From a bacterium (GTDB lineage: Bacteria; Zhuqueibacterota; Zhuqueibacteria; Residuimicrobiales; Krinioviventaceae), in NCBI GenBank assembly GCA_963693055.1, contig OY843751.1:1370072-1434071 (forward strand): a stretch of DNA of 64,000 bases, in the 5' to 3' direction. The translations under genes and the position numbers were made by a program. Of the stretch, positions 3,847 through 61,782 are shown in pieces; the first letter of the stretch is position 1, and each line of letters opens with the position of its first letter. The notes below the pieces were generated by a model. It saw only the letters and a list, made by a program, of their open reading frames with translations. It did not search any database and was not told the origin of the DNA.

Positions 3847-3873
3847 TTTCTTTCTCTTGTTTACTAATACTTT

Positions 3874-4431
3874 TTAAAATGGATTTTCACCATTTACACA
3901 AATATAATATCGAAGTACTAGAACCGGTTGAATATTGGAATGTGGTTGATTTTCACCGGACGATATAATTACACCTGGGGCCATTGTTGTTGAAGAGATG
4001 GAAGGAGAGGAATAGTATTTTAGATCATCATACTTTTCATCCATTTCTTTTATTTTTGCAGGATAATTGTTTTCAATTTCCAAGTTGTCTGCATCTTTAT
4101 TAGAGCAAAATACCGAATGATTATGGGAAGGTATTTGAGATTTGGTTAAAGTTACTTCACTAGCCCCCCCTGTTTCTCCCAAAGTACGTGCTGTTAGTTT
4201 CGCTCGTTTACCCACTCCAACCACTACTCTGTCTTTCAGGTTCGGAATTGCAAAATTGTTGACCCCATCTCCTCCGAAATGATTTCCAATTATTGCAAAT
4301 AATTCAGGATATTCTGTAATTTTTAACAGACGGCCATCGCAATATTTCCAATTTGTAGTAATAAATTCTCCGTACAGATTGTAGGGGAATGCTTCTATTG
4401 TACCCATAAAACTGGTTTCACTGGCCATCAT
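3874..4431 (-). CDS. Phage tail collar domain protein (MdpB-like), paralog 3 of a tandem triad
   Basis: Collar-domain signature FAIPNLKDRVVVGVGK...SHNHSV...NIQPVLVLRYYICVNG. The start was moved to ATGATG at 4431/4428, which has an AAGGAG RBS 4 nt upstream; the track ORF's 5' extension to 4476 overlaps the upstream gene. Confidence 0.7.
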   Translation of the reverse strand: MMASETSFMGTIEAFPYNLYGEFITTNWKYCDGRLLKITEYPELFAIIGNHFGGDGVNNFAIPNLKDRVVVGVGKRAKLTARTLGETGGASEVTLTKSQIPSHNHSVFCSNKDADNLEIENNYPAKIKEMDEKYDDLKYYSSPSISSTTMAPGVIISSGENQPHSNIQPVLVLRYYICVNGENPF

Positions 4432-4987
4432 GTTCTCCTTTGTTTTCAGATTCATGCCTTGGGGGAAAGATACCATTTATACATATAATATAATTTAAAC
4501 AGAAAAATGGCATCATATTCTCATGACCCTCGCCATCGCCTGTCATACCAATCATATTTTTTTTCATTAATACATCTTTATCTTTTCTATAAAAATGATA
4601 TTTGTTAGAACTACTGTTTTGTGCCGGATAATTATTTTCAGGATCATTAACCAAACCTGTTCTACCTGGTGTTGTAGTACATTGTAAAAGGTGATTATGT
4701 AATGGCATTTGATCTCTTTCCAATATTATTTTTTCATATCCACCATGATTCCCAAGATTGAAGTTTGACGATTCTCCTTGACCGGTCCCAACCGGTATAC
4801 ATCCGCGCAAATCCGGCAATGCTATTGTAGTTCGGCCATCACCCCCAAAATTGTTGCCGATTAGGGCTGCAAGTGCCTTGTGATCTGAAATGGATAATAG
4901 TGATCCATCACAAATTGCCCAATTGGTAGGGATTTTGGGGCCAGCAAAAAGTGCAATTTCTCCCAGAAAACTGTTTAAACCTGCCAT
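4418..4987 (-). CDS. Phage tail collar domain protein (MdpB-like), paralog 2
   Basis: FAGPKIPTNWAICDGSLLSISDHKALAALIGNNFGGDGRTTIALPDLRGCIPVG...LHNH...NMMPFFCLNYIICINGIFP matches the tail-collar (microcystin-dependent protein) family. Confidence 0.75.
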   Translation of the reverse strand: MAGLNSFLGEIALFAGPKIPTNWAICDGSLLSISDHKALAALIGNNFGGDGRTTIALPDLRGCIPVGTGQGESSNFNLGNHGGYEKIILERDQMPLHNHLLQCTTTPGRTGLVNDPENNYPAQNSSSNKYHFYRKDKDVLMKKNMIGMTGDGEGHENMMPFFCLNYIICINGIFPPRHESENKGEHDGQ

Positions 4988-5003
4988 TTTTTATCTCCTG
5001 AAT

Positions 5004-5531
5004 TTATTCAACTGGTTCCTGTTCATGAGGATATGTACCTTCAACACATATGATATAATGCAAAGCCAAAAAAGGCTGCATGTTAGAGTGCCCGTTGATA
5101 CCACCTTCCTGGCTTATTATCTCATCTCCCATTGTTTTGTTATCATGTTCTGCGCAATAACATAAAATGTTTTCAAGGTTTGGTTTTGCGAAAATATTGT
5201 TTTGGGGCTCGAAAGATTTTGTTGTATCACTAACATCACAAAATACAGAGTGGCTATGAGACGGTGTATGATATTTTTGTAGATTAGATTTTTCTTTTCC
5301 CAGATAGGTTGCAAGATTATAGTTGCCTTCTCCCATTACTGCTCTGCCATTTAGGTTAGGTAAAGCAAAATATTCATGACCGTCCCCTCCATATTTTATA
5401 TGAATAATAGAATACAGTTTTGTGTATTTTACAATCTTTAGCATATCACCATTACAGAACATCCAGTTCTTGGGTAGATAACTCCCGGCATAAAGTTTAA
5501 TGGTTCCAATAAAATCATTGTTTTCTTGCAT
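5004..5531 (-). CDS. Phage tail collar domain protein (MdpB-like), paralog 1
   Basis: YAGSYLPKNWMFCNGDMLKIVKYTKLYSIIHIKYGGDGHEYFALPNLNGRAVMG...SHSHSV...NMQPFLALHYIICVEGTYP. Confidence 0.75.
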   Translation of the reverse strand: MQENNDFIGTIKLYAGSYLPKNWMFCNGDMLKIVKYTKLYSIIHIKYGGDGHEYFALPNLNGRAVMGEGNYNLATYLGKEKSNLQKYHTPSHSHSVFCDVSDTTKSFEPQNNIFAKPNLENILCYCAEHDNKTMGDEIISQEGGINGHSNMQPFLALHYIICVEGTYPHEQEPVE

Positions 5532-18074: not shown

Positions 18075-20000
18075 TTATTTAATCATCATTACTTTTTGTA
18101 TAGAGGAACAATTACCTGCCTGCAAACGCACCAGGTAGGTACCGCTGGGTGCAGCTACCCCTGAATTGGTAGATCCATCCCATTCCACCTGATATTCAGC
18201 GGCGGATTGCTGCTGATTTACCAGTGTTTTAATTTCACATCCGAGTATATCATAAACGATCAGGGAAACATGACTGTCCGTTACCAGTTGATATTTCAAT
18301 GTAGTAGACGGATTAAAGGGATTGGGATAAGCCGCAAACAATTGTGTGGTCATTGGAATTGATTGAACATCTATGGATGTTGTACCAATTTCTGTTTGAA
18401 CTCCGTCTGTACTGACTTCCATCAGACGATAGGTATAACTTGATCCACTGGTTACATTTGCATCGGTTATGCGGTAATGTGACAGGGAGGAGGTTGTGCC
18501 TTGTCCGGTCAGTTCAGAGTGGGTTTGGTAGGATGCGATCTGCTTATAATCGAAATTTTCTGTACTGCGTTCAATGATGAATCCCAGATTGTCTTTTTCG
18601 CAGGCAGTGGACCATGTCAATTCTATAGAGTCTTTATCGTATTTAGCGGTAAAGGATTGCAGCTTGACCGGTAATGCTGTGTCGCTGCCGTTTTGCCATC
18701 CCAGAAAGGGGTAACCGTCATTAATGGTCCCGGAAGGGTCAATGTCCCAAATATCCTGACTGCCATTGGTAATTTCAATACTAAAGTCCCAACCAGCATA
18801 GGTAAATGTGGAAAGCGTTTTCATTTTTTCTGTGGTTTTGGGGGAAGCAGAATTTGTATCGTTTTGTCCTGTGGTTTCAGAATCATAAAAATTTGCACTT
18901 GCTGATATAGTCGTAGCCAGGGTAATGCCACCAGTAACGCTTCCGGTAACTGTACCCTTTGCGTAGCAATAGTGAATTTCGCTTTCCCCGTATACATTAC
19001 AGGCCAGAGCGGTTATCCGGTATGTTCCGAATGTATTTCCTGTTGCATAACAATTGTTAATATCACAATTATCACAATAGCCAATCAATCCACCAATATC
19101 TGCATGGCCAGTAACCTTACCTGTTGCGAAACACTGATTGATATTCGTATCTTTTGTCCAGCCGATCAGTCCACCAAGATAGTCTTGACCACTGACCGCT
19201 CCTGTAGCAGAGCATCTGGTCACTTGGCCATGATTCGTACCTATCAATCCACCTACATTATCAGTGGTGGCATTGACGCTGCCGGAAGCGTGGCAATCTG
19301 TGATTTGCCCGTAAAAACGTCCTGCCAGGCCGCCTATACTGGTGCCATTTTGCACATTCACACTGCTGCTACAGTTACTGATGATGGCATCTACATATAC
19401 GCCACCAATTATTCCTCCGGCAAGTGCGTCAGAACAAGTAACAGTTCCGGATAAAGTACAACCGGATATAGTGGTGTTTTCATAAACAGAACCAACCAGA
19501 CCTCCCACAAATCCATAAGCAGAGATATTTAAGCTTTCCATTTTAATATTATTTAATTCAGCGTTGGTAACATCCCCAAATAAACCGGCATAATTTGACT
19601 CGGGTCTGTTTATATACAGACCCGTGATGGTGAAACCTTGACCGTCATAGGTGCCTTCAAAAGGTGATAAAATAGTGCCAATGGGGCTAAAACCGGCGTA
19701 TCCGCCGTCTCCATCGGGATTCAGGGTTGCGCTTGCAGAGGCGTCAATATTATCGGTTTGTGTAAAGTGACGTGACCAGATAGTTGATGTTGTGCTGATC
19801 CATATCAGATGGTCAAATTCAGAAATAAGATACGGATCATAATATGCACCTGTGCCGGGCGGCTGCGTACCCGCAGCCAATAAAGGGCCTGTAAATGTCA
19901 GAGTAATGCAAAATATAGACAGATATTTTTTACTTTTGAAAAATATTCTGTGGTTTGTGATAAGAAAAGAGTTGATAAAATATGATAATAAAATTTTCAT
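18075..20000 (-). CDS. Secreted GLUG-repeat protein + FN3-like module + T9SS CTD
   Basis: 641 aa. Multiple GGLVG/GGLIG/GGLAG repeats (GLUG motif, as in IgA1-protease-like and Bacteroides surface proteins); module ALPVKLQSFTAKYDKDSIELTWSTACEKDNLGFIIERS; CTD LFAAYPNPFNPSTTLKYQLVTDSHVSLIVYDILGCEIK. Confidence 0.8.
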   Translation of the reverse strand: MKILLSYFINSFLITNHRIFFKSKKYLSIFCITLTFTGPLLAAGTQPPGTGAYYDPYLISEFDHLIWISTTSTIWSRHFTQTDNIDASASATLNPDGDGGYAGFSPIGTILSPFEGTYDGQGFTITGLYINRPESNYAGLFGDVTNAELNNIKMESLNISAYGFVGGLVGSVYENTTISGCTLSGTVTCSDALAGGIIGGVYVDAIISNCSSSVNVQNGTSIGGLAGRFYGQITDCHASGSVNATTDNVGGLIGTNHGQVTRCSATGAVSGQDYLGGLIGWTKDTNINQCFATGKVTGHADIGGLIGYCDNCDINNCYATGNTFGTYRITALACNVYGESEIHYCYAKGTVTGSVTGGITLATTISASANFYDSETTGQNDTNSASPKTTEKMKTLSTFTYAGWDFSIEITNGSQDIWDIDPSGTINDGYPFLGWQNGSDTALPVKLQSFTAKYDKDSIELTWSTACEKDNLGFIIERSTENFDYKQIASYQTHSELTGQGTTSSLSHYRITDANVTSGSSYTYRLMEVSTDGVQTEIGTTSIDVQSIPMTTQLFAAYPNPFNPSTTLKYQLVTDSHVSLIVYDILGCEIKTLVNQQQSAAEYQVEWDGSTNSGVAAPSGTYLVRLQAGNCSSIQKVMMIK

Positions 20001-20146: not shown

Positions 20147-20770
20147 GGGGAATTTCGACGGATAGAAAAAATTCCCAGACACCGATGAGGTGCCTGGGAA
20201 TAGTAATGTTCTATATGTGAAATAGGGATGGTTTTTATGGAACCTGCGAATTTTTACCACTATTGGGTTTAACCACCAAATAGTCTGTAGCGTTAACACT
20301 GCCATTCATGTTACAGTCAGAGGGATTATAACTCGCTGATCCGCTTTGGCCTTTGACAGTGAGATAGTCGGTCGCGTTTATAATACCGCTGTTATTCGCG
20401 TCTCCACTAAACATACCGTAAATGCCGGTTTCTAACTGTGCAGCGCTGCCGCCGTAATATTTGTCATAGGGTGTTGATTCATCCACGGTAAAATTATAGG
20501 TTGTCAGTGTACCGCTTAAACTCTGTGCTGTGGCGCTCATGATTGCCAAATGATTGCGGTGACGAATGACAATGTAATAGTCGCCCGGTGCCAGACCTGT
20601 GAGGGTGAGGTTGGTTACGGTACCATCGTCCTCAGCCAGATAGCCGTCGCTGCGCAGGATATAAGAGCGGCTGTACACAGCTTCACCATCTACAGTTGAG
20701 CGTAATTCCATACAAACCCAGTCGGTAATGCCTTCGGGGATACTGCCGGCATTACGATTGTCAGAATAGA
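20147..20770. repeat. Near-identical ~0.6-kb duplicated block (copy A) covering the 3' coding end of 20235..22340 plus its terminator
   Basis: 20147-~20770 is essentially identical to 23627-~24250. The encoded C-terminal ~170 aa are nearly identical (NRNAGSIPEGITDWVCMELRSTVDGEAVYSRSY...NSGKNSQVP), as are the 88 bp downstream of the stop. Confidence 0.8.
20161..20200 (-). terminator. Rho-independent terminator of 20235..22340 (inside the duplicated block)
   Basis: Minus-strand RNA forms UUCCCAGGCACC-ucauc-GGUGUCUGGGAA (12 bp, one G.U) followed by UUUUUUCUAUC. Confidence 0.55.
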
Positions 20771-22340
20771 AAGAGGTTGCGGGAATAATGCCTGCCAGAT
20801 TTGTGCCCATATTGTGGGCGCCGCTATCATAGGGGCCTTGCAGATAGACTTTGACGGCAAGCTGGGGCGTTCCTTCGTCAGTGGTAAACGATTTTACATT
20901 GCCATAAAAAGTGCCGTAACAATTGGAACAAAAAGTGCGATGATAATAGGTGGTGTTGGGCGCAAGACTGGTCACTGTGCCTGAAAAAAAGCCAAATCCG
21001 CTGCCCATGGGTGCTTGTTCATCTGCCAGGGTAGGTGTTTTGTTGGTGGAGCTGTAACAAACACCCCGACGAAGTGTAGTGACTCCATTGTATTCATAGA
21101 CATTGCCGCCAAACTCGGCAGTGGTGGCGGTAATGCTTTCCGCGTCGTACGAAGCGATGCAGTAAGGATCAATATAATATGTATCTGAGCTGCCTTTTTT
21201 AATACCCACAATGCCGTCGTCACTGCCCACCAAGAGGTCAACTCTTCTATCGCCGTTCAGGTCGGTTTGGGCCAGAACAGATTTGTCGCCTACATCAATG
21301 TCATTCCAGTTTGTGGTTACTCTGGAAAACGATAATGATGCAATACCGCTTTGCTGATAAAGCTGAATTTGACCGTCAACATTGCCAATAAAAAACTCAT
21401 ATCTAGAGTTATTATCATAATAACAAAACATGGGTGACGGCAGCTCGCCAACGTCAATGGAATTGAAATTATCGCTGACAAGCGTAAAAGTGGTAGATGT
21501 CCCGCTGTCTTGTTGGTAATGGTAAATGGCGCCGCCCAGGTTGCCCACCAGCAGATCGAGGCGGCCATTCCGATCGAGATCGGTAAAAGTAGGTTTAGAG
21601 TACCCACCCACATCAATACCGCTCAGGGCACCGACAAGGGTAAACGACGCGGAGCGGTCGCTGTCTTGTTCAAAATGGCGCAGGGTACCGTCGTCGCGGC
21701 CCATGATCAGGTCAAGCAGGCCGTCATCATCCAGGTCTGTAACCGTGGGGAAATTACAGGTGCCTACATCAATATTGTTAAAGTAAGATGTGATGAGATT
21801 GAATGAAAACGAGTTGATCTCAGATTGTTCATATCGCGATATTCTGCCGTTTTTATTGCCTACCAGCATGTCCAGCAGGCCATCTCCATCAATGTCGGTT
21901 ATGGTGGGGGCGGCGTTTTCGCCCACGTTGATATTGGTCATGTCTGACGTTTCAAATTGTAGTGAATAACCATAGCTGCCCGTACCGGCGCGGTTGGTGG
22001 CGCTGACCCGCCAAAAATAGTAGGTACTGTTGGCGGGCAGATCAACAGCATAGTTTGTGTCTTCTATGCCGGTATATGTTCCCACAATGTCGGTAAATTG
22101 ATAATCATTCGCGATCTGAACGTTATAAGTCAGGGCATGGTCTATGTTTTCCCAAAATAAATAGGCCCGGCAAGAGAGCAGCTCAAGATTGGGATATCTG
22201 GGACCGACCAGTTCAGGCGCCGGACTTGGCGCTCTGGATGTGAGGGATACCGCTCCTGATTCGCCATTTCCCGTTTGTGCAAATGTTGTGCTGGTAAAGG
22301 CCAAAACCCATACTACCAAAAGAACAAATAATTTTTTCAT
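20235..22340 (-). CDS. Secreted FN3 + FG-GAP/beta-propeller repeat protein with dockerin-like C-terminal double calcium-binding repeat
   Basis: 701 aa with signal peptide MKKLFVLLVVWVLAFTSTTFAQ. It has an FN3 domain, repeated FG-GAP-like motifs (DIDGDGLLDMLVGN, TDLDDDGLLDLIMG, TDLDRNGRLDLLVGN), and a C-terminus GDANNSGIINATDYLTVK...DCNMNGSVNATDYLVVK (two 12-residue Ca-loop-like segments each followed by a YLxVK helix start). There is no T9SS CTD. Confidence 0.8.
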   Translation of the reverse strand: MKKLFVLLVVWVLAFTSTTFAQTGNGESGAVSLTSRAPSPAPELVGPRYPNLELLSCRAYLFWENIDHALTYNVQIANDYQFTDIVGTYTGIEDTNYAVDLPANSTYYFWRVSATNRAGTGSYGYSLQFETSDMTNINVGENAAPTITDIDGDGLLDMLVGNKNGRISRYEQSEINSFSFNLITSYFNNIDVGTCNFPTVTDLDDDGLLDLIMGRDDGTLRHFEQDSDRSASFTLVGALSGIDVGGYSKPTFTDLDRNGRLDLLVGNLGGAIYHYQQDSGTSTTFTLVSDNFNSIDVGELPSPMFCYYDNNSRYEFFIGNVDGQIQLYQQSGIASLSFSRVTTNWNDIDVGDKSVLAQTDLNGDRRVDLLVGSDDGIVGIKKGSSDTYYIDPYCIASYDAESITATTAEFGGNVYEYNGVTTLRRGVCYSSTNKTPTLADEQAPMGSGFGFFSGTVTSLAPNTTYYHRTFCSNCYGTFYGNVKSFTTDEGTPQLAVKVYLQGPYDSGAHNMGTNLAGIIPATSFYSDNRNAGSIPEGITDWVCMELRSTVDGEAVYSRSYILRSDGYLAEDDGTVTNLTLTGLAPGDYYIVIRHRNHLAIMSATAQSLSGTLTTYNFTVDESTPYDKYYGGSAAQLETGIYGMFSGDANNSGIINATDYLTVKGQSGSASYNPSDCNMNGSVNATDYLVVKPNSGKNSQVP

Positions 22341-22393
22341 GTTAACCCCTATTATAGTTGTTAATTAATAACATCTTTGTTTATGATCATTGG

Positions 22394-23332
22394 TTAATCT
22401 TTGACCAGGCGGATAGAAAATCCGTAAGTAAAACTTTGATTTGAGCGTGTAATCTCTGTATCGCCGTTGTATAATCCTCGCGTCCATGCGGCCTTTTGGG
22501 GATTCCCAGACAAAACATATTGAGTGGATGACCAAAAATCAGTTGATGATCCCAATAGGGAGCTAATTTTATCGAATCGATAACCACCTGGAAGAGCGGT
22601 AAAACGGCTTTTGTTGGTAGCCCCGGTGTTTGGGCTGTCCCAATGGGTTGTTCCTGTTTCTTTAAGTTTCCCTCCGGCCATTGTACCCCCAAGTGTATTT
22701 TGTAATGTGTTCCATTCGTCATCCGTAGGAACATGCCAGCCGTTTGGAGCTATGCTTCTGCTATCATTTACTGCATACCAATTATATAAATAACCGTATG
22801 TTTCAATAAACGTTACAGCCGATGAATAGCCATAACGTGCACCAGTACTTATGTTCTTCCAAGATGTATTATAGTCAACTTTAGGTATTTCGTCACCATT
22901 TCTGTACTGTGTTTCTTTTAAATTCTCAGCCATCCACCACTGGTCGCCAATCTTGACGGTTTTGTACACCGTGCCGTCGTTGCCGGTCATGGTGCTGAAA
23001 AAATAGTAGAGTACACACACTTTGAACTGGCTGCCACTGGTATTGGGATTGTCCGCGTAAAAGTCCCACACAATGTGCTTGTCTGTGCCCGCTGTTATGT
23101 CCACACCAAGGTCGCCGGAAAGGCTGACGCATTTCAGGTCCCATGTTGCGCCGTTGTCGTTAGAGGCTTCGACTGCAATTTCAGTATTATACCCTTGGGG
23201 ATTGCTGAAATCGTAATAGATGTCGACCATGAAATTGCCGTCTGTGCGTTGTGCCACCCGTATGTTGGAAACCTGGGCGAACAGGCAGCCGGTCAGTGAA
23301 ATCAACAATAAAGCAGTGAATAGTAATCTCAT
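22394..23332 (-). CDS. FISUMP-domain (Fibrobacter succinogenes major paralogous domain, TIGR02145-like) secreted protein/lipoprotein, tandem paralog 1
   Basis: TMTGNDGTVYKTVKIGDQWWMAENL...YGYLYNWYAV...APNGWHVPTDDEWNTLQNTLGG...KLKETG...FTALPGGYR...FWSST...AWTRGLYNG...GFSIRLVKD. Lipobox-like LTGC after the signal peptide. Start placed at the second ATG (GAGGAG RBS). Confidence 0.8.
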   Translation of the reverse strand: MRLLFTALLLISLTGCLFAQVSNIRVAQRTDGNFMVDIYYDFSNPQGYNTEIAVEASNDNGATWDLKCVSLSGDLGVDITAGTDKHIVWDFYADNPNTSGSQFKVCVLYYFFSTMTGNDGTVYKTVKIGDQWWMAENLKETQYRNGDEIPKVDYNTSWKNISTGARYGYSSAVTFIETYGYLYNWYAVNDSRSIAPNGWHVPTDDEWNTLQNTLGGTMAGGKLKETGTTHWDSPNTGATNKSRFTALPGGYRFDKISSLLGSSTDFWSSTQYVLSGNPQKAAWTRGLYNGDTEITRSNQSFTYGFSIRLVKD

Positions 23333-23543
23333 TGTTCTCCTCATTCGTTATGTAAAAACCAATGCTTAACTCTAAATACCCGGGCATTGCTATTCCATAC
23401 TTTTTGTAGGAAATGCTTGTTACGGTATCTGCATCTGCATATTTTTATTCCCTCAAAAAGAACAGGCACTGCTGTAGTATTCAGAACCTAATAAAATGTC
23501 AATGTTGGAAAAGTGTTAGATTGAATTTAAGCAATTTCGCAAT

Positions 23544-23594
23544 ACAGTACCAAGCACACATGTCGCAAAAACCAGTACATATGTCGCATTTGAA
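23544..23594 (-). promoter_or_regulatory. Candidate operator: two direct copies of ACA(C/T)ATGTCGCA spaced 20 bp, upstream of FISUMP gene 22394..23332
   Basis: ACAGTACCAAGCACACATGTCGCAAAAACCAGTACATATGTCGCATTTG; the same 50-bp element recurs at 30054..30103 upstream of another FISUMP paralog. The core ACATATGT is palindromic. Confidence 0.4.
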
Positions 23595-23626
23595 TCGATT
23601 TTTAATGCTTTGGGGGTTGGAGCTGG

Positions 23627-24250
23627 TGGGAATTTCGACGGATAGAAAAAATTCCCAGACACCGATGAGGTGCCTGGGAATAGTAATGTTCTATATGTGA
23701 AATAGGGATGGTTTTTATGGAACCTGCGAATTTTTACCACTATTGGGTTTAACCACCAAATAGTCTGTAGCGTTAACACTGCCATTCATGTTACAGTCAG
23801 AGGGATTATAACTCGCTGATCCGCTTTGGCCTTTGACAGTGAGATAGTCGGTCGCGTTTATAATACCGCTGTTATTCGCGTCTCCACTAAACATACCGTA
23901 AATGCCGGTATCTAACTGTGCAGCGCTGCCGCCGTAATATTTGTCATAGGGTGTTGATTCATCCACGGTAAAATTATAGGTTGTCAGTGTACCGCTTAAA
24001 CTCTGCGCTGTGGCGCTCATGATTGCTAAATGGTTGCGGTGACGAATGACAATGTAATAGTCGCCCGGGGCCAAGCCAGTGAGGGTGAGGTTGGTTACTG
24101 AACCATCGTCCTCAGCCAGATAGCCGTCGCTGCGCAGGAGATAAGAGCGGCTGTACACAGCTTCACCATCTACAGTTGAGCGTAATTCCATACAAACCCA
24201 GTCGGTAATGCCTTCGGGGATACTGCCGGCATTACGATTGTCGGCATGGG
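23627..24250. repeat. Near-identical ~0.6-kb duplicated block (copy B) covering the 3' coding end of 23715..25802 plus its terminator
   Basis: See copy A (20147..20770); identity extends through the terminator hairpin and 3' flank. Confidence 0.8.
23641..23680 (-). terminator. Rho-independent terminator of 23715..25802 (duplicate of 20161..20200)
   Basis: Sequence identical to the hairpin and U-run at 20161..20200. Confidence 0.55.
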
Positions 24251-25802
24251 GAGAAGTTGCTGGTATTTTACCGGCCAAATTCATACGCATGGCGTGCGCG
24301 GCGGTATTATATGTGCCTTGCAGAAAGACTTTGACGGCAAGTCGGGGGTCGCCTTCATCGGTGGTAAATGATCTTGTTGTTCCATAAAAGGTGCCGTAAC
24401 AATTGGACCCAAACGTACGGTAATAATAGGTAGTATTGGGAGCAAGCCCGGTCACAATGTCTGAAAAACTTCCTGACGAACTGCCCATTGAGACCATGTT
24501 GTCTGTCATGACGGGCGGATTGGTGGTACTGTAAATGACACCGCGTCGCTGCACCGGTACGCCATTATGATTAGAAAAACGACCACCCAGTTCAGCGGAT
24601 GATTCGGTTATGTTTTCCGCCGCGTCCGTTGACATGGAAACATCAATACGATAAGTATCTCCTTTTTTAATACCAACAATGCCATCACCACCACCGACCA
24701 ACAGGTCAACGCGTTTATTACCGTCCAGATCGGTTTGAGCCAGTATTGATCTTTCGCCAACATCAATGTCATTCCAATCCGTGGTTGCACTGGAAAACGA
24801 TAATGATGCAATACCGCTTTGCTGATAAAGCTGGATTTTACCGTTTTCAGCACCTATAAAAAGCTCTAAATTATTTCCCGCATCGTAATAACAAAACATG
24901 GGTGAAGAGTCACCGCTGACATCAATAGAATTGAAATTATCACTAACCAAGGTAAAGGACAATGAATACTTGGCGTCCTGTTCGTAATGACGAATGGTGC
25001 CCTCCAAGGTGCCCACCAGCAGGTCAAAGTAGCCATCCAAATCCAGGTCAGTAAAAGTGGGTTTAGACCAAGAGCCCGCATCGATGCCGCTCAAAGCGCC
25101 AATATAGGTAAAGGATGCTGAACGCTCGCTGTCTTGTTCATAATGTTGCAGGGTGCCGTCGCCGCGGCCTATGAGCAGGTCAAGCAAGCCGTCGCCATCC
25201 AGATCAGCAACTGTGGGGGAACTACCAACACCGACATCAATATCGCTAAAATTTGACGTAATGAGGTTTAATGAAAACGAGTTGACAGCCGTTTGTTCAT
25301 AACGGGTCAGTGTACCGTCATGATTGCCCACCAGCATATCTAACAGACCGTCGGCGTCAATATCGGTCATGGTTGGGGCGGCGTAACTGCCCACGTTGAT
25401 GCTGGTCATATCTGATGTTTCAAATTGCAGTATATAACTATATTGGCCTGTGCCGGCGCGGTTGGTGGCACTGACCCGCCAGTGATAGGTGGTACTGTTG
25501 GCGGGCAGATCGGCAGCATACTCTGTTTCTGTTATGCCGGTATATGTTCCTATTATATTGTCAAATTCCCAATCAGTTGCGATTTCTAAGTTATAGGTTT
25601 GGACATGGTCCATGTTTTCCCAAAATAGATAGGCCCGGCAAGATAGCAGGTCTGTATTGGGGTATCTGGGACCGACCAACTCTGGCGAACCGGGAGGCAT
25701 GGAAGTCAGAGACACTGTAGAAGATTCGACGCTACCATTAGCTGTTAAACCGCATACGGCAAATAACAAAAGCATTAAAATTATCATGTTTAAATTTTTC
25801 AT
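23715..25802 (-). CDS. Secreted FN3 + FG-GAP/beta-propeller repeat protein with dockerin-like C-terminus (paralog of 20235..22340)
   Basis: Start moved to MKNLNMIILMLLLFAVCGLTANG at 25802 (AAAGGA RBS); the track ORF extends spuriously to 25964. FG-GAP motifs DIDADGLLDMLVGN, ADLDGDGLLDLLIG, TDLDLDGYFDLLVG; the C-terminal ~170 aa are identical to the paralog. Confidence 0.8.
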   Translation of the reverse strand: MKNLNMIILMLLLFAVCGLTANGSVESSTVSLTSMPPGSPELVGPRYPNTDLLSCRAYLFWENMDHVQTYNLEIATDWEFDNIIGTYTGITETEYAADLPANSTTYHWRVSATNRAGTGQYSYILQFETSDMTSINVGSYAAPTMTDIDADGLLDMLVGNHDGTLTRYEQTAVNSFSLNLITSNFSDIDVGVGSSPTVADLDGDGLLDLLIGRGDGTLQHYEQDSERSASFTYIGALSGIDAGSWSKPTFTDLDLDGYFDLLVGTLEGTIRHYEQDAKYSLSFTLVSDNFNSIDVSGDSSPMFCYYDAGNNLELFIGAENGKIQLYQQSGIASLSFSSATTDWNDIDVGERSILAQTDLDGNKRVDLLVGGGDGIVGIKKGDTYRIDVSMSTDAAENITESSAELGGRFSNHNGVPVQRRGVIYSTTNPPVMTDNMVSMGSSSGSFSDIVTGLAPNTTYYYRTFGSNCYGTFYGTTRSFTTDEGDPRLAVKVFLQGTYNTAAHAMRMNLAGKIPATSPHADNRNAGSIPEGITDWVCMELRSTVDGEAVYSRSYLLRSDGYLAEDDGSVTNLTLTGLAPGDYYIVIRHRNHLAIMSATAQSLSGTLTTYNFTVDESTPYDKYYGGSAAQLDTGIYGMFSGDANNSGIINATDYLTVKGQSGSASYNPSDCNMNGSVNATDYLVVKPNSGKNSQVP

Positions 25803-25855: not shown

Positions 25856-26827
25856 TTAATCTTTGACCAACCGTACTGAAAATCCATACCCGGCAATTGC
25901 AGACCGTCTCTGGATACCGGATTCGTAATAAAAAAGCATGCGTATTGTATTTGTAGATGCCCAATATCCGGTTTCATAGCCCAAAGGGGGATAGGAATTC
26001 ATTATACCTCCATCCCAAGCACTTTTGCGAAAAGACCCTGGTGTGGCAGAAAAATGCCAGATGTCAGAAGAACCATATCCATCCATGTACCATCCTCTTG
26101 TAGTTTTTAATTGATTCCCTTGATCCGTGCCGCGATATACACCTCCCTTATTGGCTTCTTCTTCACTCATGCCCATAAACATTTCCAGTTCTATCCAGTC
26201 CTCATCCGTGGAAAGGTGCCACCCGGGAGGGGCAATGTTTCTGCTATCCGCACAAGCATACATATTATATACATAACCATAGCTTTCAGCATAACTTTCA
26301 TCATTGTCATATACACCTCGTGCTCCAATTTCATTCTCGTTACAATCTTGCCATCCCGCAATATCATCCGGGTAAACAATGTCAGAGCCGTCACGGTATT
26401 TTGTTTCTCTTAAATTTTCACGCATCCACCACTGGTTGCCAATTTTAATGGTCTTGTATATCCTGTCGTCATTGCCGGTCATGGTCCCATATAAAGTATA
26501 CAAAATTTGAATTTTGAGCTGGCTGCCGCTGGTATTGGGATGGTCGGCGTAATAGTCCCATACGATGTGTTTGTCTGTTCCGGGTGTAGTCACATATCCT
26601 TTATCACCCGAGAGGCTGGAACATTTTAAATTCCACGTAACGCCATTATCTTCTGAAGCTTTGATTCCGATATCTGCAGCTTCACATACCGGATCAACAA
26701 TGTCATACCATATGTCAACCATAAAAGTGCCATCGGTGCGTTGTTGCACGCGCAGGTTGGTGACCCCTTGCGCCAACAGGCAGCCAACGGTCAAGAGTAA
26801 TGTTGTTACTGTTGTTGAAAATTTCAT
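25856..26827 (-). CDS. FISUMP-domain secreted lipoprotein, tandem paralog 2
   Basis: MKFSTTVTTLLLTVGCLLAQ (lipobox), then an N-terminal Ig-like domain and a FISUMP domain (IYKTIKIGNQWWMRENL...YGYVYNMYA...APPGWHLSTDEDWIELE...GFSVRLVKD). Start at 26827 with a GAGGGA RBS. Confidence 0.8.
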   Translation of the reverse strand: MKFSTTVTTLLLTVGCLLAQGVTNLRVQQRTDGTFMVDIWYDIVDPVCEAADIGIKASEDNGVTWNLKCSSLSGDKGYVTTPGTDKHIVWDYYADHPNTSGSQLKIQILYTLYGTMTGNDDRIYKTIKIGNQWWMRENLRETKYRDGSDIVYPDDIAGWQDCNENEIGARGVYDNDESYAESYGYVYNMYACADSRNIAPPGWHLSTDEDWIELEMFMGMSEEEANKGGVYRGTDQGNQLKTTRGWYMDGYGSSDIWHFSATPGSFRKSAWDGGIMNSYPPLGYETGYWASTNTIRMLFYYESGIQRRSAIAGYGFSVRLVKD

Positions 26828-26934
26828 GATATCCCTCATTTCTGTATCCGGGTTAGCTCTTTAATCTCGCACACACCGGAAATTGACTCTACACTTTTAA
26901 TAATTGTAACTGTACATGACGCGCCACAAATGAA

Positions 26935-27873
26935 TTAATCTTTAATTAAACGCAGAGAACATCCACATTCCCTGTACTCTTCATCAAATATGACATAAGT
27001 AGCAGCACTGGCTAATAGCATAATATCCGCGAAGAAAGAACGAGATGATGTTGAGGCCCATAGGGATGATGCATTTTCAAGATTTCGAAAATATCCTGAT
27101 AAAGGAGCATCCAAACGGACAAACCGGTCTCCCGCGCCAAGGGCTGTAAATCCGCTTGAATTTGTTGCATTAACATTATAAGAGTTCCAATGCATGGTAC
27201 CCTGTTCTTTAAGTTTGGAACAGGCGTCATTAAAAAGATAGTTTTTTAGCGCATTCCACTCTCCCTTTGAAGGCACATGCCATCCCTCGGGCGCTATTTG
27301 ACGGGCATCATCAACCACAAACCAGTTGTAAAGGTAACCATAAACATTGCCAAGCGAGTCCGAATTGTTATAAGAACAGCGTGCCCCGGTAGACAATCCA
27401 TACCAATTATAATTATTTTTCTCTACAGGTATCGGGTCGCCATTTCTGTATAATGTCTCTTTTAAATTCTCCGCCATCCAAACCTGATTGCCGATTATAA
27501 CGGTTTTATACAGTTTTCCGTCATTGCCCATCATATAGTCATCTCTGGCAGTTAAACGTACTTTGTATTGATTGCCTGAGACATTGGGATTGTCTGCATA
27601 AAAATCCCACACAATATGTTTGTCCGTACCCGGGGTGATATTTCCACCCACATCACCCGTCAGGTGTGTGCACATTAAATCCCATGTCGCTCCGTTATCT
27701 GCCGAGGCTTCAACCAATATGGCAAGCATATTCTCCCCAGAATAAGCTAAATTGTACCAGATATCCGTTATAAATGTGCCGTCGGTGCGCTGCTGCACGC
27801 GCACGTTTGAGACCTGGGCGTACAGGCAGCCAACGGTCAAGAATAATGTTGTTACCGTTGTTAAAAATTTCAT
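26935..27873 (-). CDS. FISUMP-domain secreted lipoprotein, tandem paralog 3
   Basis: MKFLTTVTTLFLTVGCLYAQ, then LYKTVIIGNQVWMAENLKETLYRNGDPIP...YGYLYNWFVV...APEGWHVPSKGEWNALKNYL...GFTALGAGDR...CGCSLRLIKD. Start at 27873 with a GAGGAA RBS. Its upstream intergenic region is about 85% identical to that of paralog 2. Confidence 0.8.
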   Translation of the reverse strand: MKFLTTVTTLFLTVGCLYAQVSNVRVQQRTDGTFITDIWYNLAYSGENMLAILVEASADNGATWDLMCTHLTGDVGGNITPGTDKHIVWDFYADNPNVSGNQYKVRLTARDDYMMGNDGKLYKTVIIGNQVWMAENLKETLYRNGDPIPVEKNNYNWYGLSTGARCSYNNSDSLGNVYGYLYNWFVVDDARQIAPEGWHVPSKGEWNALKNYLFNDACSKLKEQGTMHWNSYNVNATNSSGFTALGAGDRFVRLDAPLSGYFRNLENASSLWASTSSRSFFADIMLLASAATYVIFDEEYRECGCSLRLIKD

Positions 27874-27980
27874 GTTATTCCTCATTGCTGTATCCAGGTC
27901 AGAGCTTTGATCTTGCACACACCGGTAATTGACCATACACTTTCAATAATTGTAACTATATATGACGCACCACAAATGAA

Positions 27981-28916
27981 TTAATCTTTTATTAAACGTA
28001 TTGTACATCCGTGCTTTTTATTAATCAAATAATTATACATAGTATCTGTATTGTAACTCATTGTTAAGCTCCCACCATTAATGCCGTTAACATCTTGTTG
28101 GGCTAACCATATCCAGGCGTCCTCCCATATGTCATTAAAATTACCATCGTCATTTCGTCTTCCGGCCGCTATTGCTGTAAAGCCGCTTTCATTTGTGGCG
28201 GCGGTATTGGGATAATCCCAATGAGCATATCCGGTTTCTTTCATTTTTCCACCTTTCGAACCCCCTAAAAAATCATATAAATCACTAAAATCATAATAAG
28301 TTGGAACATGCCATCCGGAAGGCGCAAGATTACCGGTTGCGACAACATACCAATTATATAAATAACCATAGCTGTTTGTGTAATTTTCATTATTATTATA
28401 CACACACCGGGCGCCGGTTTCCAAAGTGGACCATGTGGAACTGCTGGCTACAACCGGTATACTACTAATACCGTTTCTGTATTTTGTTTCCCTTAAATTT
28501 TCAGCCATCCACCATTGGTTACCAATCTTGACGGTTTTGTACACTTTACCGTCGTTACCGGTCATGGTGCTGTTATAAAAAAACAAAAGACGGACCTTGT
28601 ACTGGTTACCACTGGTGTTAGGATGGTCGGCGTAAAAGTCCCATTCAATGTGCTTGTCCGTTCCCGCGGTAATTCCTTCACCCACATCGCCGGTGAGGCT
28701 AGAGCAAGACAGGTTCCATGATGCTCCATTGTCATGAGAAGCTTCTATTATTATTTCGGCGGTTTTTGTATAAGAATCTCCCTCAAAACCCAGATCATAC
28801 CAGATATCAACCACAAAATTGCCATCTGTGCGTTGAACCACCCGCACGTTGGAGACCTGAGCGTACAGGCCGCCGGTCATAAGGAGGAATGTCATTATTG
28901 TAATTTGAAATCTCAT
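27981..28916 (-). CDS. FISUMP-domain secreted protein, tandem paralog 4
   Basis: VYKTVKIGNQWWMAENLRETKYRNG...YGYLYNWYVV...APSGWHVPTYYDFSDLYDFLGG...GFTAIAAGRR...GCTIRLIKD. Start at the second ATG (GAGGTA RBS). Confidence 0.8.
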   Translation of the reverse strand: MRFQITIMTFLLMTGGLYAQVSNVRVVQRTDGNFVVDIWYDLGFEGDSYTKTAEIIIEASHDNGASWNLSCSSLTGDVGEGITAGTDKHIEWDFYADHPNTSGNQYKVRLLFFYNSTMTGNDGKVYKTVKIGNQWWMAENLRETKYRNGISSIPVVASSSTWSTLETGARCVYNNNENYTNSYGYLYNWYVVATGNLAPSGWHVPTYYDFSDLYDFLGGSKGGKMKETGYAHWDYPNTAATNESGFTAIAAGRRNDDGNFNDIWEDAWIWLAQQDVNGINGGSLTMSYNTDTMYNYLINKKHGCTIRLIKD

Positions 28917-28950: not shown

Positions 28951-29926
28951 TTAGTTCTTTACTAGACAGACCGAATGTCCTTTTCCTTTTTCGTCATAAA
29001 GACGGTAAATATTTAAATTATAACAGAGTATGTAACGTTTCAATGCTTCATTTTCGCCATAGGATGAAGCAGACCAAAAATAGGCACGGATTCTCTTGTC
29101 AATAAAAATGCCTTGAATGTTGGAACAACAACCGCCCGGTGTCGCTGTAAAAAGGCTTACGGCAAAATTAACATCATTTTTTGAAACATCATCTTGTAAC
29201 AAATTTGCACGATCCGCCAGTTTACTACCTTCATCATCTCCGTAATCCAGATTTATTTTTGTCATCTACACTCATACCCAATGCGCGTTCCAGTTCCTTC
29301 CAGTCGGCATCTGTGTGAACATGCCAACCGTTTGGAAAAAAATCATGCGGATTTTCCAGATCCACAACTTACCAATTGTATAAATAACCAAAAGTTGAAG
29401 CATTATCTGGATTATTATCAAAATAACAATAAGCGCCAATATTAATATTAGTCCAATCCTGATTGTTTACTGTGGTTGCTATGGTTGACCCATCGTTATA
29501 ATGCTTTCCCCTTAAATTTTTTGCCATCCACCATTGGTTACCAATTTTTATTGTTGGGTACACATTAGCATCGTAATCCCTCATGGTGTCGGTTAATAAA
29601 AGAATTACACGTATTTTAAACTGATTACCGTTAGTGTTAGGGTTGTTTGTGTAAAAATCCCAAACAATGTGTTTGTCCGTACCCGCTGTGATATCCTCAC
29701 CAGCGTCGCTGGTAATGCTGGAACAATTCAGATCCCAGGTTGTGCCATTGTCGTCAGAGGCTTGAATAATTATTTCGTTATCACATCCTTCGGAATTATT
29801 GAAATCGTACCAGATATCAACTATAAAAGTGCCGTCTGTGCGTTGTTGAACTCTCATGTTGGAAACCTGGGTGAATAGACTGCCGGTTATATTAATTATT
29901 AAAAATATAGTATATAGTGATCTCAT
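28951..29926 (-). pseudogene. Disrupted fifth FISUMP paralog (premature stop after YGYLYNW plus at least two frameshifts)
   Basis: ORF 29369..30067 encodes the N-terminal domain plus the first half of FISUMP (PTIKIGNQWWMAKNL...FGYLYNW*). The continuation FPNGWHVHTDADWKELERALGMSV is in a second frame, and ORF 28951..29265 (FTATPGG...FWSASSYGENEA...SVCLVKN) is in a third. Homopolymer runs A7/T7 lie at the junction. Confidence 0.6.
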
Positions 29927-30053
29927 AAAAATTCTTGTATATTTGAATTGTCTTACAAATAGGCAAGATTCCTGGAAAGATTTAGACGGCATGTTGTAAA
30001 AAAAATTTTTACAACGATTTATTCTTGTTTTAAAATTTACAAAAATAAACAAA

Positions 30054-30103
30054 ACAGTACCAAGCACATATGTCGCAAAAACCAGTACATATGTCGCATT
30101 TGG
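30054..30103 (-). promoter_or_regulatory. Second copy of the ACATATGTCGCA x2 operator-like element, upstream of the disrupted FISUMP paralog and just downstream of the hybrid kinase gene
   Basis: ACAGTACCAAGCACATATGTCGCAAAAACCAGTACATATGTCGCATTTG matches 23544..23594 except for one base. Confidence 0.4.
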
Positions 30104-30121: not shown

Positions 30122-32926
30122 TTAAAAAGTGTATTGGGAAGGAGATTTGCCAAACCGTTTTTTAAAGCAGCGTCTGAAATAGTCAGGGCTGCCGAACCCG
30201 GTTTGGTAGGCAATTTCTGATATGGTGGCGGTTTTACTTTCTAACATTTGAATAGCATGTTTTAGCCGGATTGAATGGATAAAATCAACAACAGTTTGGT
30301 TGGTAAGCGCATGGATCTTGCGGTGCAATTGTGAGCGAGACAAGGCCATCTTACTGCTTAACCAGTCTACACTCAGATCGGGATTGTTTAAATGCATTTC
30401 AATCAAATCCGCCGCACGCTTTAAAAAAACCTCATCGGCAGGCATGACCGCAATATCTTTAAGGGGGGTTGTGATTTGTTTGTTAAATCGTTGGCGCAGT
30501 TTTCGGCGCTGATCGATAAGGTTTTTGATCCGTACTTTGAGCTCGTCCGGTTCAAAAGGTTTGGTAAGATAGTCGTCAGCACCCAAGGTAAGGCCTTCAA
30601 TTTTGCTGGCACTGTCTGAACGGGCGGTAAGTAACACAACAGGTATATGGCTGGTGCGTTCATCGGTTTTCAATTTTTCACAGAACTGGTACCCGTCCAT
30701 GTTGGGCATCATTACATCACTGATTACCAAGTCGGGAATGCAATTGATTGCCTGTAGCAAACCGTCTTTGCCATCGACTGCTTCCAGTATTTCATATTCA
30801 TCTTCAATAATCTCATGAATATAGGCGCGCAGCTCTGAATGGTCTTCGGTAATGAGAATGATGGGGGCATCTTTTTTCTTTGAATGTCGAACAGGAACAG
30901 GCTTGTCATCCTTGTCATGTATATCCACAGGTGGTTGTTTGGTACTCTTGAAATTCAAAGAGGGTACTGGTGCAAAATCTTGTTCTGAAAAATGATCTTT
31001 TCCCAAAGGCAGATGTACAGTAAATGTGCTGCCCTTGTCTATTTCACTGGATACTGAAATTTTACCACGATGCAGAAGCACAAGTTCGCGAGCCAGTGCC
31101 AGCCCAATTCCGCTGCCTTGCTGGTTTTGTGGGTATCCGTTTTCAACCTGGTAAAACCGATCGAAAATATGTTCAAGGTGCTCATCTGGAATCCCTGGAC
31201 CGGTGTCTGATATGCTGATTTCCAGGGAATCGTTTTGAGAAACCGAAACTTTGATCTCTCCACCGGTGGGTGTGAATTTAACAGCATTTGATAAAAGATT
31301 GCCTAGTACTTTGTCGATTTTATCCCGATCAATCCAGACATAGGCAGCATTTAAACCGGTTTCATATATCAAACTGATTTGATGATGAACTACATGAGAT
31401 TCAAATGTCTGACATACACCTTTAATTAGTGGCCAAATATCTGTTTTTTTAACTTTTAATTCCATACGTCCTGATTCAATGCGGGAAAGGTCAAGCAGCT
31501 CATTCACCAGGTTTAAAAGTCGGCGACCATTCTTTAACTGTAAACGTGACCTCTTTCGTATGTTTTTATCTTGTGATTCATTCAGAATCTGTTGTGCTGT
31601 ACCCAGAATCAGGGTGAGGGGGGTACGGAATTCATGGGAAATATTGGCAAAAAATCGGGATTTCATTTTATCAATTTCTTTAAACTTTTCCGATTCGATG
31701 ACTTTTTTCTGAGCAATCTCTTTTTGGCGATTGTTTTCAATATACCTGTCAATGATGATCAATGTAAGACAGATAACAAAACCCAGGGTGCCGAAATGAA
31801 TCAGTCTGATATTTGATGATATATTGATCACATAATGCAGAAAAAGTTCAAGACCACCAAATAAATAAAAAATAATCAATCCTATAAAAAGTAACTTGAT
31901 TTCGCGCTTACCTTTGGTTGAACTCTTGATCACCAGAATAAAATTGGTTGTGGCGCTTGTGGAAGTAATTATAAAAAATAATTGATAAAACAGATCCGTA
32001 AAACGGTTCTTGATAATAATCATTGACAATATTGATAGTAATAGAAAAAACAGGTGGCCCTTCCAAAAACGTCTGACGACAGGTTTGAATTTTTTAGTGA
32101 TAATCTGTTCCGTGAGATACAAGCCGCCAATGGGTGAAGACATTAATGAGAAAAAATCCAGTAAAAAAAAGAGTCGCGGAGCATAGACCATTGTTTGAAG
32201 AAAGTAAGAATTGCTTCCTGTAAAGATACCAATTGAAATTAAAAATGTAGCAATTCCAATCAATAGATTGTTTCTCTGCACAAATAAATAAATAAATAAT
32301 AGTACAAAGCCAAGAATAATAAAAAGCGGGGCAAAGATGATTTCATCTATATCTTTGATAAATAGTTTTTTTAAAATAATGTCTGCCGGGGCAAGCCAGA
32401 TGGGTTGATTTAAACCTATTGTAGATTTATCGGACCAGATTCGAAAACAAAGAATACCTTTGGAATAATCATCGGGAAGACGTACAAGCATCATATGCCA
32501 GCCAACAAACAAATCTTTGTTTGTTGTGAAATCACCAAATTGATAGATTTGTTGGTCATTTAGGTAAACCTGAACAATTTGCCTTACACTGGGGAAAAAT
32601 AACGCAGGGTCTGAGTCTTTAGTATCCGGAAGCTGTGTTCGTATCCACAAACTATTATATCCCGTATTGGGGATGTCGTCAAAGTTTTCTACGGATATCC
32701 ATTTGTTTGAATCAATACCGTCATCCAACCAGATTAAATGTCCGTTTGCATCTTTAGGAGAATCCCCAATACGATACTGCCAACCGTTCTCAATATTATA
32801 TATCTCGTTTGATGTATTGGTATTATAGTTAATGATATTCGTTTCTTTGCCGAAACAAAGCGTTGAATATAATATAATTACAAACAAAATATATGTTAAG
32901 ACCAATGGTCGATTAGTCAGAATCAC
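30122..32926 (-). CDS. Hybrid two-component system sensor histidine kinase/response regulator with 7TMR-DISM sensor and C-terminal AraC-type HTH
   Basis: 934 aa. It has an N-terminal extracytoplasmic 7TMR-DISMED2-like domain plus a 7-TM region, HisKA (FFANISHEFRTPLTLILG), HATPase_c (GSGIGLALAREL), a receiver (DLVISDVMMPNMDGYQFCEKLK) and an AraC HTH (QTGFGSPDYFRRCFKKRFGKSPSQY). Confidence 0.85.
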   Translation of the reverse strand: MILTNRPLVLTYILFVIILYSTLCFGKETNIINYNTNTSNEIYNIENGWQYRIGDSPKDANGHLIWLDDGIDSNKWISVENFDDIPNTGYNSLWIRTQLPDTKDSDPALFFPSVRQIVQVYLNDQQIYQFGDFTTNKDLFVGWHMMLVRLPDDYSKGILCFRIWSDKSTIGLNQPIWLAPADIILKKLFIKDIDEIIFAPLFIILGFVLLFIYLFVQRNNLLIGIATFLISIGIFTGSNSYFLQTMVYAPRLFFLLDFFSLMSSPIGGLYLTEQIITKKFKPVVRRFWKGHLFFLLLSILSMIIIKNRFTDLFYQLFFIITSTSATTNFILVIKSSTKGKREIKLLFIGLIIFYLFGGLELFLHYVINISSNIRLIHFGTLGFVICLTLIIIDRYIENNRQKEIAQKKVIESEKFKEIDKMKSRFFANISHEFRTPLTLILGTAQQILNESQDKNIRKRSRLQLKNGRRLLNLVNELLDLSRIESGRMELKVKKTDIWPLIKGVCQTFESHVVHHQISLIYETGLNAAYVWIDRDKIDKVLGNLLSNAVKFTPTGGEIKVSVSQNDSLEISISDTGPGIPDEHLEHIFDRFYQVENGYPQNQQGSGIGLALARELVLLHRGKISVSSEIDKGSTFTVHLPLGKDHFSEQDFAPVPSLNFKSTKQPPVDIHDKDDKPVPVRHSKKKDAPIILITEDHSELRAYIHEIIEDEYEILEAVDGKDGLLQAINCIPDLVISDVMMPNMDGYQFCEKLKTDERTSHIPVVLLTARSDSASKIEGLTLGADDYLTKPFEPDELKVRIKNLIDQRRKLRQRFNKQITTPLKDIAVMPADEVFLKRAADLIEMHLNNPDLSVDWLSSKMALSRSQLHRKIHALTNQTVVDFIHSIRLKHAIQMLESKTATISEIAYQTGFGSPDYFRRCFKKRFGKSPSQYTF

Positions 32927-61770: not shown

Positions 61771-61782
61771 GGAGATGGATGA

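Follow-up and report, generated by a model that had tools for sequence, protein, structure and literature searches.

Why do two neighbouring genes that differ at many sites over most of their length end in nearly the same 0.6 kb of DNA, and what does the shared end encode? The genes, which we will call A and B, lie on the reverse strand of a 64,000-nucleotide stretch of contig OY843751.1 (assembly GCA_963693055.1, positions 1,370,072 to 1,434,071). We will refer to this whole stretch as the window. It comes from an uncultured bacterium whose genome is of the FCB (Fibrobacterota-Chlorobiota-Bacteroidota) type, as an initial annotation of the DNA had supposed: the window encodes a GroEL that shares 88% identity with proteins of candidate division KSB1.

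A (20235..22340) encodes 701 amino acids and B (23715..25802), its tandem paralog, encodes 695; the listing of open reading frames (ORFs) bears out the coordinates that were first given for both. The products are identical to database proteins P0001 and P0003, respectively. (The mechanical ORF of B extends to a TTG at 25964, and it is the ATG at 25802 that yields P0003.) Both are secreted FG-GAP/VCBS beta-propeller proteins with the same architecture, ending in a beta-sandwich and a dockerin-like module. FG-GAP_3 and FG-GAP from Pfam match A with 49.9 and 47.7 bits and B with 56.1 and 51.6 bits, all above the gathering scores, so both proteins belong to the FG-GAP group. The initial annotation had also labelled them FN3, which we do not retain: fn3 reached 15.9 bits, in B only, when 25 are required, and Pur_ac_phosph_N reached 25.8 bits against a threshold of 30. 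The propeller proteins likely contain beta-sandwich domains.

The explanation that we find best as a whole, and that we consider quite probable, is that the 3' end of B was converted by A and that this end encodes a module of the dockerin family; that the module docks through calcium is the part we infer.

The shared 3' block and its origin

The shared block occupies 20148..20762 in A and 23628..24242 in B, at a constant offset of 3480 in both a repeat finder and an ungapped comparison, and it is present exactly twice in the window. Its 615 nucleotides comprise 528 coding nucleotides, including the stop codon, and 87 nucleotides of 3' flank. With 11 mismatches the block is 98.2% identical, and the earlier description of a 100%-conserved 0.6 kb was overstated: identity is complete only for the 282 nucleotides of 20148..20429 (twin 23628..23909), which are the flank with its terminator and 195 coding nucleotides. 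At the DNA level, a maximum chi-square analysis placed the 5' border at 20762/20763 (mismatches number 11/615 within the block and 78/267 beyond it), close to the first estimate of ~20770/24250. At the other end, similarity stops abruptly at 20148/23628. Outside the block, A and B are 55-83% identical per 60-nucleotide window. A perfect run of 282 nucleotides in genes that diverge by 29% just upstream of 20763 cannot be due to chance.

Each copy of the block includes an intrinsic terminator hairpin (20171..20201 for A and 23651..23681 for B, both on the reverse strand). The two hairpins are identical, with a 13-bp stem that includes one G-U pair, a 5-nucleotide loop, and a T-run; the initial annotation had placed the hairpin at both genes correctly but counted 12 bp. 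The predicted folding energy is -28.3 kcal/mol (z = -7.3 relative to shuffled sequences). Elsewhere, a search for the terminator pattern found only one match, on an unrelated high-GC contig (L081).

To date the block relative to the rest of the genes, we used Nei-Gojobori (NG86) estimates of synonymous (dS) and non-synonymous (dN) divergence. Between A and B, dS is 0.65 for codons 1-140, 0.84 for codons 141-390, and 1.29 for codons 391-523. Across the border it drops to 0.07 (codons 527-701), and it is 0 for the last 65 codons. The 87-nucleotide non-coding flank is 100% identical.

As outside references we used two orthologs, P0002 from genome L001 and P0005 from genome L002. L001, a contig of 3.64 Mb, encodes a GroEL with 99% identity to that of the window. 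Its locus lies between counterparts of the window's hybrid kinase/AraC gene and S9 peptidase and contains a single FISUMP (Fib_succ_major) gene and a single propeller gene, P0002; in L002, four FISUMP genes are followed by P0005. In codons 141-523, A is nearest to the ortholog from L001 (dS 0.57), B is nearest to the ortholog from L002 (dS 0.42-0.87), and A and B are more distant from each other. This pairing implies that the duplication that gave rise to A and B is older than the splits between these genomes. In codons 527-701, the nearest relative of A is B, and vice versa (dS 0.0-0.11); L001 comes next (0.27-0.98), and L002 is saturated. Thus, the tract and its flanks give conflicting phylogenies, and the tract is sharply bounded and includes synonymous and non-coding sites. 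These comparisons support the earlier proposal of recent gene conversion, and they show that the near-identity of the block arose by ectopic conversion between the two paralogs.

Could strong selection on the C-terminal module alone have kept the block similar, without any recombination? The module is indeed the best-conserved part of the protein among the orthologs: between A and L001, dN is 0.04 for amino acids 527-701, as compared to 0.11-0.27 elsewhere. But synonymous differences have collapsed too. In these same codons, dS is 0.45-0.48 from either A or B to L001, against 0.07 between A and B, and the block gives a tree at odds with that from the remainder of the gene. Because constraint on the protein can erase neither synonymous differences nor differences in the 87-nucleotide flank, purifying selection alone is ruled out as the cause, and we give this explanation practically no weight.

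The direction of the transfer can be read from the same two genomes. L001 shares the 3' end of A, including the terminator, with 86% identity across the whole block, and two compensatory changes of base pairs preserve its hairpin. The 3' end of L002 is different, and the flank is not shared. The A-type end is thus ancestral to A, and B is the recipient. By sequence comparison, the conversion most likely ran from A to B, after the split from the sister lineage of L001. The inferred donor tract (20148..20762) comprises 175 codons at the end of A, together with the stop codon and 87 nucleotides of flank; the inferred recipient tract (23628..24242) is supported by the same evidence and by how B groups with the orthologs.

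We propose the following history. A and B are old paralogs whose divergence predates the separation of this genome from its relatives. Once the nearest sister genome had split off, non-reciprocal homologous recombination overwrote the 3' end of B with that of A, from the last 175 codons through the stop codon and the terminator, perhaps in two nested events. The overwritten stretch encodes most of a conserved C-terminal module of ~215 amino acids. The suggestion of two events comes from the uneven spread of the mismatches in the tract (0/282 versus 11/333; Fisher p = 0.0013), which fits either two nested conversions or one event followed by uneven decay; the 282-nucleotide sub-tract is possibly the younger, nested conversion.

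An error in assembly or polishing could mimic this pattern, if reads from one paralog were used to correct the other or if a repeat was collapsed and then duplicated. Public copies of the A and B proteins come from one 6.5-Mb contig only, an exact search for the junction of B in JGI metagenomes found no match, and the two-copy state was read from the assembled sequence alone, which counts against conversion. Several other observations make an artefact very unlikely. The block contains 11 differences, of which 8 are synonymous (NG86: sd 8.0, nd 3.0). Both reading frames are intact, and the border is in frame within homologous genes. The A version is independently corroborated by the ortholog from L001 at 86% identity. 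Also, the name of the L001 contig (ctg94855l) suggests a long-read assembly, and a 0.6-kb repeat would easily be spanned if the contig of the window is long-read as well.

The initial annotation also offered a "cassette-like" shared end, that is, a programmed exchangeable 3' cassette of the shufflon or antigenic-variation type. Such systems typically target surface proteins, and the A/B family is a mosaic, with different segments nearest to different orthologs. But there are no inverted repeats in 18-28 kb and no recombinase or integrase domain among the window ORFs that we scanned. Furthermore, the 64 kb hold just the two copies of the block, with no silent partial copies, and both copies belong to complete, terminated genes. 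We therefore drop the cassette label, and view such a system as highly improbable here.

The mosaic extends to the other end of A. The first ~300 nucleotides of A (22025..22340) are ~90% identical to the B-type ortholog from L002 and 64-80% identical to L001, its closest relative otherwise, so there is a further recombination breakpoint in the gene family. The locus shows that surface-protein paralogs of the KSB1-like group evolve as mosaics.

Concerted evolution by ectopic gene conversion is known from tufA/tufB in Salmonella. As at that locus, a tract with sharp borders has been homogenized between paralogs of one genome, synonymous sites included. Unlike at tufA/tufB, only the 3' quarter and the terminator are affected in A and B, which are adjacent, directly repeated genes for surface proteins. 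Conversion between tandem paralogs is already known, and so are dockerin-like modules outside of cellulosomes; what the A/B locus adds is a clean and datable partial conversion in an uncultured KSB1-like genome.

The C-terminal module

The proteins end in a dockerin-like pair of EF-hand loops and helices (20268..20405 in A, corresponding to amino acids 646-691, and 23748..23885 in B). The C-terminal peptide reads as first quoted, with two tandem 12-residue calcium loops, DANNSGIINATD and DCNMNGSVNATD, each of which is followed by a helix. Both loops have the EF-hand/dockerin pattern (D1, N/D3, D/N/S5, D12). Pfam's Dockerin_1 (PF00404) matches full-length A and B with 26.2 bits, above its gathering score of 22.9, and matches the last 81 amino acids alone with 41.2 bits (E = 1.9e-10); the ortholog from L002 scores 27.7 bits. 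When a profile of the module family (alignment A1) was compared to solved structures, it matched only dockerins (best hit 2vn5_B, E = 4e-5), and there was no sequence match beyond the dockerin part, including to X modules. Judging from these profile matches, the C-terminal tail does belong to the dockerin family, as the initial annotation had suspected.

The two repeats of A are identical at 14/24 residues. Across 22 homologs, the two repeats of one protein share 58% identity, as compared to 25-29% for repeats of different proteins; at helix positions, the corresponding figures are 63% and ~21%. Thus, these proteins have the internal two-fold symmetry of dockerins. The dockerin-like part aligns 46 residues to model positions 2-53, and the 10-residue linker between its halves has no helix in the AlphaFold2 (AF2) model.

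What the initial annotation missed is a larger conserved module of ~215 amino acids, of which this pair forms just the end. Searching with the last 204 amino acids brought up short stand-alone proteins, as well as fragments, in which the region is shared in full and not just in its dockerin-like part. The preceding beta-sandwich (20406..20864 in A, amino acids ~493-645; 23886..24344 in B), defined by alignments A1 and A3 and by AF2, has invariant DWV and HRNHL motifs, and the end of the module is conserved as VP. No Pfam or NCBIfam family matched the sandwich.

AF2 run on the module alignment returned a beta-sandwich and then two helices where dockerins would have them (residues 159-167 and 187-196 in a model of 204 residues), with a predicted local distance difference test (pLDDT) score of 80.7. 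A model of the sandwich alone had a pLDDT of 85.2. With Foldseek, the top matches of the whole module in the Protein Data Bank (PDB) were dyads of an X module and a dockerin (4u3s_B, 4wi0_B, 3kcp_A, and 5g5d_B). Alignment A1, the models, and the joint profile hits all have the sandwich contiguous with the dockerin-like part and conserved together with it, as in X-module-dockerin (X-Doc) dyads. The models thus suggest an X-Doc-like arrangement: the module would consist of a transthyretin- or Ig-like beta-sandwich and then a compact dockerin-family domain with two EF-hand calcium loops. We also considered that the sandwich might be a built-in cohesin, and rejected this, as no cohesin chain was among the Foldseek matches listed for it.

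How does the module compare to characterized dockerins? Like type I dockerins (PF00404; for instance, endoglucanase A of Clostridium cellulolyticum, 2vn5_B), it has tandem calcium loops with helices and symmetric halves, at the C terminus of a secreted protein. Unlike them, the A/B domain is shorter (~46 amino acids), has a 10-residue linker without a modelled helix, and is always preceded by the specific beta-sandwich; its passenger is a beta-propeller instead of a glycoside hydrolase; and its host is a Gram-negative-type, KSB1-like bacterium, with no cohesin in the scanned window ORFs. The X-Doc dyads of CipA from C. thermocellum and ScaA from A. cellulolyticus (2b59, 3kcp, 4u3s, and 5g5d; type II) also have an Ig-like sandwich directly N-terminal to the dockerin, conserved as a unit, and they are the best Foldseek matches for the whole module and among the best for the sandwich alone. 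They differ in that TM-scores are only 0.36-0.50, and the A/B sandwich has no sequence similarity to X modules, is larger (~150 amino acids), and has HRNHL and DWV motifs of its own.

To examine the distribution of the module, we searched with its profile among 1.84 billion cluster representatives. Of these, 17,562 matched at E <= 1e-3, and 8,310 still did so at E <= 1e-30. In the best 150, which we inspected, a hand count found that the match ends within a few residues of the C terminus in ~120; these proteins have 240-2300 amino acids. The passengers include FG-GAP_2, Laminin_G_3 with a P-domain, PhoD or other metallophosphatases, beta-helices, and GH43_C2, and most of the module proteins with an annotated passenger fall below Pfam's threshold for dockerins. 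Among the loci that we fetched, the module is likewise found at the end of two giant proteins from a Bacteroidales metagenome-assembled genome and of a second protein from L002. (The two modules of L002 are just 44% identical, which rules out genome-wide homogenization of modules.) Some proteins have three or five tandem copies. The dockerin-like tail is thus part of a large family of C-terminal modules that lacks a model.

Docking and attachment to the cell surface

By scans with Pfam and NCBIfam, A and B lack the T9SS (type IX secretion system) C-terminal domain (CTD) that neighbouring ORFs carry, as had been noted at the outset. Neither protein matches Por_Secre_tail or TIGR04183 at E <= 1, so they do not qualify as T9SS cargo with a type A CTD, and a T9SS CTD was found on the ORFs at 18075, 13595, 11386, 8496, 33113, 5886, and 2506. 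Most of the homologous FG-GAP propellers of ~650 amino acids have Por_Secre_tail or FlgD_ig at the position of the module, and a few have a classical dockerin. We infer that the module is a calcium-dependent device for docking to another protein. It would hold the propeller on a partner at the cell surface, in place of the T9SS CTD of most of its homologs, and if it does, this would be a second route for attaching proteins to the surface of FCB-type bacteria.

There are precedents for parts of this proposal. Cloacimonadota are grouped with the FCB phyla. In the Cloacimonadota genus Stygibacter, proteins with signal peptides end in dockerins, and attachment to a partner bound to the cell was proposed for them (Williams et al. 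2021, PMC8542988). Like our bacterium, this is an uncultured lineage with T9SS-type C-terminal domains as well as secreted proteins that end in dockerins. There, a scaffoldin with tandem cohesins was found, whereas our scan for cohesins was within 64 kb. The dockerins of Stygibacter are carried by hydrolases and peptidases, and that study did not describe the beta-sandwich module. Another report describes dockerins that were assigned to Bacteroidetes of the rumen (PMC6487960). Finally, P0019 (a "VCBS repeat-containing protein" from Gemmatimonadota) and P0007 have the same passenger as A and B and, like the propellers with a T9SS CTD, a localization module at the C terminus. Unlike A and B, these two have a classical dockerin of the GDCNGDG type without a preceding HRNHL sandwich, and the majority of propellers have Por_Secre_tail/FlgD_ig.

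Several observations weigh against this explanation. No cohesin or other partner was found among the scanned ORFs of the window or the genes from L001 and L002, and a propeller without a CTD would need some other route across the outer membrane. With 46 residues aligned to 52 positions, the dockerin-like part falls short of the ~60-70 amino acids of canonical dockerins, and no linker helix was modelled. The structural similarity is weak, both for the whole module (Foldseek E = 6e-4 to 1e-2, TM-scores of 0.36-0.50) and for the sandwich-only model (best E = 4.5e-3). The sandwich alone matches X modules at E = 7e-3 with a TM-score of 0.38, on a par with transthyretin-like folds, and all of these matches are weak. 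The helix surfaces of the two L002 modules are very different; together with their low identity, this makes them a poor fit to a common scaffoldin or a shared receptor. Also, P0287 has five internal copies of the module and then, by eye, a tail that resembles T9SS type A (Pfam's Por_Secre_tail did not match at E <= 1e-4), so the module is not a simple substitute for the T9SS CTD. The combination of tandem copies and a T9SS-like tail in one protein implies that the module is a working extracellular domain and not a secretion signal, and for the same reason it is unlikely to be a new T9SS sorting signal.

Alternatively, the dockerin-like pair might not dock to cohesins at all, and might instead be a calcium-dependent structural or ligand-binding element. 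It could stabilize the beta-sandwich, bind glycans, or contact the FISUMP lipoprotein that is probably co-transcribed with the propeller. We would put this somewhat short of an even chance. It would account for the lack of cohesins among the scanned window ORFs, for helix surfaces that differ strongly between proteins even in one genome, and for the tandem copies in some proteins, and the invariant DWV and HRNHL motifs suggest that the sandwich has a site of its own. Many dockerin-like modules are reportedly found in genomes that lack cohesins. On the other hand, the two-fold symmetry of the repeats is the signature of the dual-mode cohesin binding of type I dockerins, and in the Cloacimonadota genus, enzymes with dockerins and a CTD-bearing cohesin scaffoldin were inferred together (PMC8542988).

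The arrangement of the locus bears on the FISUMP option. A FISUMP gene (22394..23344, reverse strand; 144.6 bits in Pfam) lies 53 nucleotides upstream of A, and another (25856..26839, reverse strand; 122.7 bits) lies 53 nucleotides upstream of B. The second resembles the first (repeat families D3, D6, and D8), and the first is the probable operon partner of A and part of the duplicated unit. Two tandem units make up the locus, each with a FISUMP gene, a gene for a secreted FG-GAP beta-propeller, and an intrinsic terminator. Of the four intact FISUMP proteins, three have a lipobox-like LTGC or TVGC. The pairing of FISUMP and propeller genes is kept in the window, L001, and L002, which are three related genomes, and this favors a contact between the two products. 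So does P0289 (1438 amino acids), which fuses FG-GAP_2, the module (amino acids 815-1039), and a weak match to Fib_succ_major (E = 3.3e-5, below the threshold); the fusion hints at a functional link between propeller, module, and FISUMP. But FISUMP genes were not adjacent to module-bearing genes at the two Bacteroidales loci that we examined, and we saw no such adjacency outside of KSB1-like loci, so we rejected it as a general rule.

A broader and more speculative idea, which we think is unlikely but worth stating, is that the ~215-amino-acid unit represents an unrecognized and widespread surface-docking system of FCB bacteria: an X-Doc-like alternative to the T9SS CTD, with receptors specific to each protein instead of a common cohesin scaffoldin. 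In this lineage, the receptors could be the FISUMP lipoproteins, which are probably co-transcribed. If so, conversion between the paralogs would keep the tails of A and B matched to one receptor.

For now, neither the process nor the domain family is new, and the result will be of use mainly for annotation. The most worthwhile aspects are the size of the unmodelled sandwich-plus-dockerin family and its pattern of symmetry.

Other features of the locus and the window

A gene for a hybrid histidine kinase/response regulator/AraC protein (30122..32926, reverse strand) heads the locus in the window, L001, and L002, as judged from Pfam and synteny. The FISUMP copy nearest to it (28951..30067, reverse strand) appears to be disrupted: ORF 29369..30067 covers only positions 1-56 of the 187 in Pfam's FISUMP model, and a separate ORF of 104 amino acids (28951..29265) ends in CLVKN, as is usual for the family. 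L002 likewise has a split FISUMP copy (8938-9597 and 9525-9944).

A patch of 184 nucleotides (26769..26952 and 27815..27998) is 88% identical between two FISUMP genes, spanning their 5' ends and upstream regions; over the rest of their sequence, the two genes are far more diverged. This patch may be a second homogenized tract in the locus.

On the other side of A, a gene for a GLUG-repeat protein with a T9SS CTD (18075..20000, reverse strand) lies between A and the S9 peptidase. L001 lacks it at this position, so the two close relatives differ by an insertion or deletion. In L001, a gene for an rve-family integrase or transposase (3315..4121, reverse strand) is inserted upstream of the syntenic locus, among genes with T9SS CTDs; it has no counterpart among the scanned window ORFs.

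Three tandem phage Tail Collar genes (PF07484) lie between genes with T9SS CTDs, at 3874..5531 on the reverse strand of the window and also at 18625..20299 in L001. Near the other end of the window, homologs of CsgE and CsgG, from curli secretion, are encoded at 61165..63640 on the forward strand, with genes for a PAS histidine kinase and for a sigma-54 activator upstream of them.

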